A stretch of 64,000 bases of DNA from NCBI RefSeq assembly GCF_988242995.1, contig NZ_OZ547043.1; one strand, given 5' to 3'. The translations under genes and the position numbers were made by a program. Shown here piece after piece: positions 40,186 through 40,924 of the stretch (positions within the stretch are counted from its first letter, which is position 1; each line of letters begins with the position of its first letter). Under the pieces are notes generated by a model. It ran no database searches, was not told where the DNA came from, and saw only the letters and a list, made by a program, of their open reading frames with translations.

Positions 40186-40789
40186 TCATCCCGGGCAAAT
40201 GCCCGGGAACTACTCCAGGACTATTTTCTTTGTTAAAAAAAGACAAATGGTATGAACTGATGTATTTACTGTTTACCTGATTGCACCCTGCAGGGGATTA
40301 TCAGAATCCACGATTATTCATTATTTATATATATTCAATAAAAAGGAACCTCAAAAAAAAAATCCCGCACTCACAGGGTGATGCGGGATAACTGACGTAA
40401 GGAATGCTGCCGGGATTTGGTGGTCCCTTGTGCTGATATGAATACAGATTCTATTTTATACATAATACTTTTCAGTACAAGCGACTGTATTACAGTTTGC
40501 CATATATGATTACCTGTGATCCGGAAGAATAAGTGGCTGCAGCTTCAGACTGACCGCCGGTACAAGTTCGCTCAGAATAACCAACCTGAGTCGCAATATC
40601 GACAATGTACTCGCCCTGCTAGCGCATTTGCTTTACCATCTAAAAGTCTTCTCTGCTCAGTATGTTGATGTCCTTTCTGATGTAAGAACCTCTAGGAAAC
40701 AACATGTTGGATGGTTCGAGCTAATCCAAATGGTGATTTACCGTCTTATATCATTGGCGCTGACAATCCGGCGTTCCAGTTCGTCAATA

Positions 40790-40924
40790 CGAGGAGAACA
40801 TCCGTCAAGGCGGGGTAATAAAGCTCTTAAGCGGTCGTTGTTCCTGACAGCCTTCGCTGCACTCATAGCCCCAATATCCAGGGCCTACTACACAAACGAC
40901 ATAGCTAGGTGTTTATCGCCCTAG
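40790..40924 (+). pseudogene. Remnant of an IS110-family transposase C-terminus
   Basis: Translation ...GNKALKRSLFLTAFAALIAPISRAYY... resembles the conserved C-terminal motif of IS110/IS1111 transposases; the rest of the 98-aa ORF is not transposase-like. Confidence 0.35.

Follow-up and report, generated by a model that had tools for sequence, protein, structure and literature searches.

Decayed remnant of an ISEc20-related IS110-family transposase gene beside the P4-like integrase of an Escherichia coli pheV island

The DNA considered here is a 64,000-nucleotide stretch of an Escherichia coli chromosome (termed here the window), within which the phenylalanine tRNA gene pheV, the attachment site of a genomic island, lies downstream of speC and of a frameshifted yqgA. 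Between the integrase gene of this island and an IS66-family element, an earlier note on the same sequence had described a decayed IS110-family transposase fragment. That description is borne out by the analysis given below, with revised boundaries and with a different account of how the gene was disrupted. The features that matter are as follows (coordinates are those of the window):

38647-38722 (+): tRNA-Phe gene (pheV), the island attachment site
38920-40185 (+): intact P4-like tyrosine integrase gene, 421 aa
40186-40509 (no strand): conserved non-coding DNA downstream of the integrase, common to the K-12 KpLE2 element
40510-40565 (-): last 18 codons and stop codon of a yjgX-like phosphoethanolamine transferase gene, forming the left edge of a deletion
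40566-40765 (-): left-end remnant of an IS21-like element, 200 bp, comprising the terminal inverted repeat, a leader of about 100 bp and istA codons 1-32
40628-40924 (+): open reading frame of 98 aa, which reads the antisense strand of the IS21-like left end in codons 1-46 and the IS110 remnant, up to a frame-shifting deletion, in codons 47-98
40766-40977 (+): 3' part of a decayed IS110-family transposase gene, matching roughly residues 316-394 of the ISEc20 transposase, which has 398 aa (tblastn, blastn, NCBIfam NF033542 and PGAP)
40978-43266 (-): IS66-family element, 2289 bp, with tnpA at 42794-43195, tnpB at 42450-42797 and tnpC at 41015-42400

The tRNA gene is identified by ARAGORN, by the Rfam tRNA family and by the annotation of the flanking yqgA and speC genes in matching genomes; the integrase is identified by its open reading frame, by annotation as a tyrosine-type recombinase/integrase, by a match to NCBIfam PRK09692 (E = 8e-73) and by 74% nucleotide identity to K-12 intB. 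Just upstream of pheV, yqgA (DUF554; 37823-38541, +) is broken into two open reading frames, 37823-38365 and 38389-38541; the annotation of matching genomes marks it as frameshifted, and in GN02461 it is intact. Past the IS66-family element the window carries a CP4-44-like module encoding zinc-ribbon proteins, a Gp2-family protein, an Hha-like protein, an AlpA-like regulator, a GTPase, Ag43, an antirestriction protein, a RadC-like protein and YeeU/CbtA. Its first two genes, immediately past IS66, are adjoining, overlapping zinc-ribbon paralogs (173 aa as listed and 135 aa; 43529-44358, -), which are followed by the inovirus Gp2-family gene. Elsewhere in the window, Rfam at its gathering threshold reports an STnc490 Hfq-binding sRNA (7025-7148, -), naRNA4 (26755-26825, -) and, just upstream of the Ag43 autotransporter gene, IS102/IsrC RNA (51023-51259, +).

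The interval between the integrase and IS66 was dissected by a blastn search for distant matches to 40400-40976 among 5426 complete E. coli genomes, which split it into three unrelated pieces, and by subsequent base-by-base mapping. On the integrase side, 39393-40431 aligns at 74% to K-12 intB and the DNA downstream of it, and 40426-40562 matches, at 90.5%, the K-12 sequence that lies beyond the IS2 insertion. The yjgX-like tail that ends this stretch translates as LVPAVSLKLQPLILPDHR, as compared with RNIPADSLKPQPLILPDHR for K-12 yjgX, and in matching genomes a 'phosphoethanolamine transferase' pseudogene is annotated at this point. Two hairpins occur in the non-coding spacer: a perfect one (CCCGGGCAAATGCCCGGG) at 40189-40208, right after the integrase stop codon, and one found by a terminator scan at 40364-40377 (-), which is terminator-like, is followed by a T-run and is probably a terminator left orphaned when most of the yjgX-like gene was deleted.

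The IS110 remnant was located by tblastn with the 398-aa ISEc20 transposase from E. coli ATCC 25922 as query, a search of the kind that the earlier note had proposed. Within the whole 64-kb window there is a single significant match (E = 8e-22, 72% amino acid identity), and it is divided between two reading frames: ISEc20 residues 312-364 align to frame +2 at 40751-40909 (38 of 53 identical), and residues 366-395 to frame +1 at 40894-40983 (15 of 30 identical). No other part of ISEc20, its N-terminus included, is found in the window (the best other tblastn match has E = 0.36). The change of frame has a simple basis: alignment with ISEc20 and with alleles lacking IS66 reveals a 19-bp deletion between 40893 and 40894, by which the reading frame is shifted from +2 (40769-40893) to +1 (40894-40977). 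Shortly after this deletion, at 40906-40908, there is an in-frame TAG where ISEc20 has CAG, and the last three codons (T, Q and stop) and the right end of the element are missing. Because of the 19-bp deletion, the IS110 homology outruns the 98-aa open reading frame, which ends at 40924, and continues in another frame up to the IS66 terminal repeat at 40978. The fragment had been placed at 40628-40924, with IS66 50 bp away; part of that interval is indeed IS110-derived, but the real span is 40766-40977, the rest of the open reading frame is not IS110, and the gap to IS66 is 0 bp. Upstream of 40766 the DNA is that of the IS21 left end, and the N-terminal DEDD/RuvC-like domain (PF01548) is absent; since this domain is lacking, the feature is best classed as a remnant derived from an IS110-family member rather than as a functional member.

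The IS21-like fragment on the minus strand matches, at 88.6% over 202 bp, the left end of the IS21 copy in plasmid pRIVM_C039629_1 (L006), where umuC is split around the element and a 4-bp duplication (ATAG) bounds it. It shows the features by which a left end of the IS21 family is recognized, namely a terminal inverted repeat starting TGT, an istA gene immediately inside this end, and colinearity with the IstA N-terminus. The terminal repeat (TGTCAGCGCCAATGATATAAGACGG, also given as TGTCAGCGCC) has its terminus at 40765 and aligns to the IS21 terminus (TGTCAG). Codons 1-32 of istA, at 40568-40663 (-), have decayed: ATA stands in place of the start codon and in-frame TAG stops occur twice, the reading being ILSREDF*MVKQMR*QGEYIVDIATQVGYSER as against MLSREDFYMIKQMRQQGAYIVDIATQIGCSERT in IstA. 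The element is internally truncated at 40566. The earlier remark that the upstream part of the 98-aa open reading frame is 'not transposase-like' is thus correct as regards IS110, but that part is in fact the antisense of a left end belonging to another IS family.

The IS66-family element on the other side (NCBIfam NF033517, E = 1e-104), whose terminal repeats begin GTAAGCGTACAGC (GTAAGCG) by inverted-repeat alignment, directly abuts the IS110 remnant at 40977/40978, just after ...CTTTATAT and 9 nt before the point at which the transposase stop codon occurs in alleles free of IS66. It lacks the 8-bp target duplication that was sought at its ends, 40970-40977 being CTTTATAT and 43267-43274 being CACTATTT. 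Moreover, its tnpC gene (41015-42400, -) encodes 461 aa and, relative to the TnpC proteins of ISEc22 and ISEc47, has a clean 51-aa in-frame deletion by which a conserved block is removed; judged by its sequence, the element is probably immobile. PGAP annotates this tnpC as intact despite the deletion. The window holds a second member of the IS66 family, ISEc22-like, at about 62350-64000 (-); it has the same orientation as the first, to which its identity is about 85-87%, and it truncates a DUF4942 gene and runs off the end of the window.

What IS66 did, and did not do, to the transposase gene can be read from three alleles that are free of it: L007 (GN02461, at pheV), L010 (JNE120442, at leuX) and L011 (AR_0089, in a tandem island, downstream of another island). 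In these alleles the gene continues to ...DGALYTQ* and is then followed by about 29 nt homologous to the right end of ISEc20, yet in all three the N-terminal 316 codons are already gone, and the truncation falls at the IS21 junction seen in the window. The in-frame TAG, like this junction, is common to the window and to all three, and the 19-bp deletion is common to the window and the leuX allele L010. Because they are present without IS66, the N-terminal truncation, the TAG and (from L010) the 19-bp deletion predate its arrival. Beyond the joint, the window has the CP4-44-like module, whereas the IS66-free alleles have an EAL-domain gene and a fimbrial operon; when the right-hand continuation of the IS110 element was sought, the DNA downstream of the remnant in L007 had no match within the window. 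Because the flanking 8 bp differ and the cargo beyond differs from that of the IS66-free alleles, the IS66 copy is interpreted as a joint at which cargo was rearranged or swapped; that is, it appears to be a defective family member at a rearrangement joint and not a simple insertion.

These alleles bear directly upon the possibility, raised in the earlier note, that IS66 was the disruptor. In its strong form this explanation holds that the IS110 gene was intact until IS66 inserted, and the arrangement in the window lends it some plausibility, inasmuch as IS66 lies directly against the remnant (40977/40978), at which point the final three codons and the right end have been removed. For those last 9 nt of the gene and for the right end of the element, the suggestion stands. 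As the cause of the N-terminal truncation, IS66 is ruled out by L007, L010 and L011, which were already truncated and which share the IS21 junction and the TAG, L010 sharing the 19-bp deletion as well; to regard these alleles as secondary products of precise excision is implausible given their differing downstream cargo. It is therefore very unlikely that IS66 was the main disruptor. The major disruption is attributed instead to insertion of the IS21-like element followed by a deletion, because the IS66-free alleles show the same truncation at the same IS21 junction.

The following series of six events would account for the present arrangement. First, an ISEc20-like element would have resided close to a yjgX-like gene, on the downstream side of the P4-like integrase in a tRNA-associated island. 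Second, an IS21-like element would have inserted near codon 316 of the IS110 transposase gene, the left terminal repeat of the inserted element now ending at 40765. Third, a deletion would have taken out the bulk of the IS21-like element and of the yjgX-like gene, together with the 5' four-fifths of the IS110 element (including the DEDD/RuvC domain and the left end), thereby creating the 40565/40566 junction. Fourth, a CAG-to-TAG change would have introduced the stop at 40906-40908; and, fifth, the 19-bp deletion would have shifted the frame in one allele lineage. Sixth, the IS66-family element would have landed 9 nt before the stop codon, after which the DNA beyond it would have been exchanged, as is suggested by the missing target duplication together with the differing cargo. 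The identity of each piece, the positions of the junctions and the lesions are directly observed, as is the occurrence of the second through fifth events in IS66-free alleles; we infer the order of the IS21-like insertion relative to the deletion and, at the other end of the series, the mechanism of cargo exchange at IS66. Taken as a whole, the reading of this locus as a dead relic of the last fifth of an ISEc20/ISSfl4-related IS110 transposase gene, scarred in these steps, is held with very high confidence.

The 98-aa open reading frame from which the fragment was first recognized has a TTG start and is present at 40628-40924 (+), and its C-terminal part (...RRSSSSIRGEHPSRRGNKALKRSLFLTAFAALIAPISRAYYTNDIARCLSP) is as the earlier note had quoted it, with a likeness to IS110 transposases that lies far above chance. 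It might be imagined to be a genuine chimeric coding gene that re-uses the C-terminal helices of the transposase, inasmuch as 98 codons are open and the region is 95-100% conserved in 318 genomes. Its first 46 codons, however, are the antisense strand of an IS21 end; a promoter/terminator scan detects no promoter-like site upstream of it on the plus strand and, over the region, yields no more sites than does shuffled sequence; PGAP calls no gene for it; and among 5.8 billion proteins only one short cluster (P0031) is alike, the match covering only part of the query. Nor is the open reading frame conserved in this form, because in L007 a 1-bp indel changes the upstream frame and the start, and the 19-bp indel changes the C-terminus between alleles. 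A functional chimera is accordingly very unlikely. To all appearances the open reading frame is a chance read-through across the IS21/IS110 junction, where the two pieces happen to be fused in frame.

Profile searches bear upon the identity of the remnant in a more qualified way than do the pairwise comparisons. NCBIfam NF033542 (IS110 family RNA-guided transposase) is matched over model positions 265-341 of 343 (E = 9.7e-8), with a score far under the whole-protein cut-off, and Pfam PF02371 (Transposase_20) is matched over model positions 38/47-86 of 87 at 17.2-19.3 bits, for the raw open reading frame and the repaired peptide, against a gathering score of 21.3. Such sub-threshold scores are as expected for a fragment, or for half a domain; PF02371 is thus not decisive alone, and pairwise and NCBIfam searches were therefore used. 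In tblastn against plasmids, the repaired peptide is 75-77% identical in amino acid sequence to ISSfl4/ISEc20 genes (E about 1e-32). The notion that the similarity is due to chance, or to some other helix-rich protein family, to which the low PF02371 score and weak Pfam matches to HemY_N and Vps55 (E = 0.01-0.15) might lend color, has a negligible probability, given pairwise E values of 8e-22 and about 1e-32 to curated IS110-family members, nucleotide identity to ISEc20 of 71-78% over 209-276 bp that in L007 extends past the stop codon, and an NF033542 match that falls exactly at the C-terminus of the model. Nothing contradicts the IS110 identification, with which the PGAP annotation agrees.

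IS110 recombinases require a RuvC-like domain, a Tnp domain and a bridge RNA transcribed from a non-coding end of the element. The window lacks about 80% of the gene, both element ends (the left one through deletion, the right one through truncation by IS66 at 40977) and any bridge-RNA region. Rfam finds no family in the region, either at the gathering threshold in a search of the whole window or, above chance, at a permissive threshold over 40100-41100. With no DEDD/RuvC domain, no element ends and no guide-RNA region, the 79-residue C-terminal stub is predicted to be incapable of acting, and the remnant, which would not encode a recombinase, to be without function; lacking both the RuvC domain and the bridge-RNA region, it is also irrelevant to RNA-guided recombination by IS110 elements. 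The 95-100% conservation of the scar could be read as a sign of constraint, but the indels and stops that accumulate inside it, with the frame and ends of the open reading frame varying between alleles, show otherwise.

The IS21/IS110 junction (40690-40900) occurs in 318 of the 5426 complete E. coli genomes, at 324 places, all of them chromosomal and all at 95-100% identity, and the scar is found next to P4-like integrases, at sites that include pheV and leuX. The same integrase with the same scar is seen at pheV, at leuX and in the tandem island, the leuX copy carrying the 19-bp deletion allele of the window; this suggests that the module next to the integrase has been transferred, or exchanged by recombination, between loci. 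In each of the 30 sampled records the scar is listed as an IS110 family transposase, and in the four records examined in detail it is a pseudogene that lacks its N-terminus and is frameshifted or has an internal stop. The IS110 remnant is thus already known in public annotation as a pseudogene. It carries little biological weight, being a routine IS scar near the integrase, in the variable part of a tRNA-associated E. coli island. It can nevertheless serve as a phylogenetic marker, in that its nested lesions (the IS21 junction, the TAG, the 19-bp deletion and IS66) order events, and it links pheV and leuX islands through a common integrase module.

Among the closest known counterparts is the RefSeq/PGAP pseudogene 'IS110 family transposase' (e.g., AB847_RS25870 in strain H1827/12), which is the same DNA at 99.9-100% identity, corresponds to 40754-41004 of the window and is flagged as 'frameshifted; incomplete; missing N-terminus'. 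It differs from the remnant as delimited here in that its coordinates spill into the adjoining terminal repeats, by about 12 bp into that of IS21 on the left and by 27 bp into that of IS66 on the right, and in that the IS21-like fragment and the yjgX-like tail are left unannotated. As compared with IS21 itself, the fragment at 40566-40765 (-) retains the terminal repeat and the first 32 IstA codons but amounts to just 200 bp out of about 2131; it has lost the start codon and contains two stops, and at 88.6% identity it is a relative of IS21 and not IS21 proper.

The remnant is colinear with the C-terminal 79 residues of the 398-aa transposase of ISEc20/ISSfl4, IS110-family elements of E. coli, Shigella and Klebsiella chromosomes and plasmids. 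It shares with them the RRSGSSIRGE...RRGNKALKRALFLSAFAAL motif of the Tnp (PF02371) domain, the ...LARRR.DVLF..M.DG..Y tail and, in the IS66-free allele, the homology over about 29 nt after the stop. Identity is only 72-77% at the amino acid and 71-78% at the nucleotide level, the window allele having 72% and 71% (blastn), respectively, and the less decayed L007 allele 75-77% and 78%. Such values point to a parent that was a distinct IS of the ISEc20 clade and not ISEc20 itself. No intact parent closer than 75-77% amino acid identity was found in the 5426 E. coli genomes (blastn), in 72,556 plasmids (tblastn) or in the 5.8-billion-protein collection, the last of which returned only 36 candidates, mostly short partial proteins, and so has limited power; for want of an intact parent the exact IS cannot be named. 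A literature search on ISEc20 yielded incidental mentions only. As for ISEc20 itself, an intact copy in ATCC 25922 (L003, 1050-2246) is flanked by a small hypothetical gene and by a gene for an AlpA-like HTH regulator, with an Hha-like gene next to it; the same gene module is unoccupied in the island of the window (about 46000-47850), and it may hold a preferred ISEc20 target site.

A broader proposal, which we offer tentatively and consider somewhat less than evenly probable, is that the remnant is the sole surviving trace, in the collections searched, of an undescribed and possibly extinct IS110 element that is sister to ISEc20/ISSfl4, and that the integrase together with the IS21/IS110 scar forms a fixed integrase-proximal module moving with P4-like integrases between tRNA loci (pheV and leuX), with the defective IS66 mediating a swap of cargo from the EAL/fimbrial operon to the CP4-44-like Ag43 module. 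The K-12 KpLE2 element (leuX-intB-IS2-yjgX) provides a parallel in organization: there, too, a P4-like integrase is followed by the conserved spacer and by the 3' end of a phosphoethanolamine transferase pseudogene on the minus strand. KpLE2, however, has an IS2 at the equivalent of 40426-40431 and keeps most of yjgX; both are absent from the window, where the IS21/IS110 scar is found in their place.
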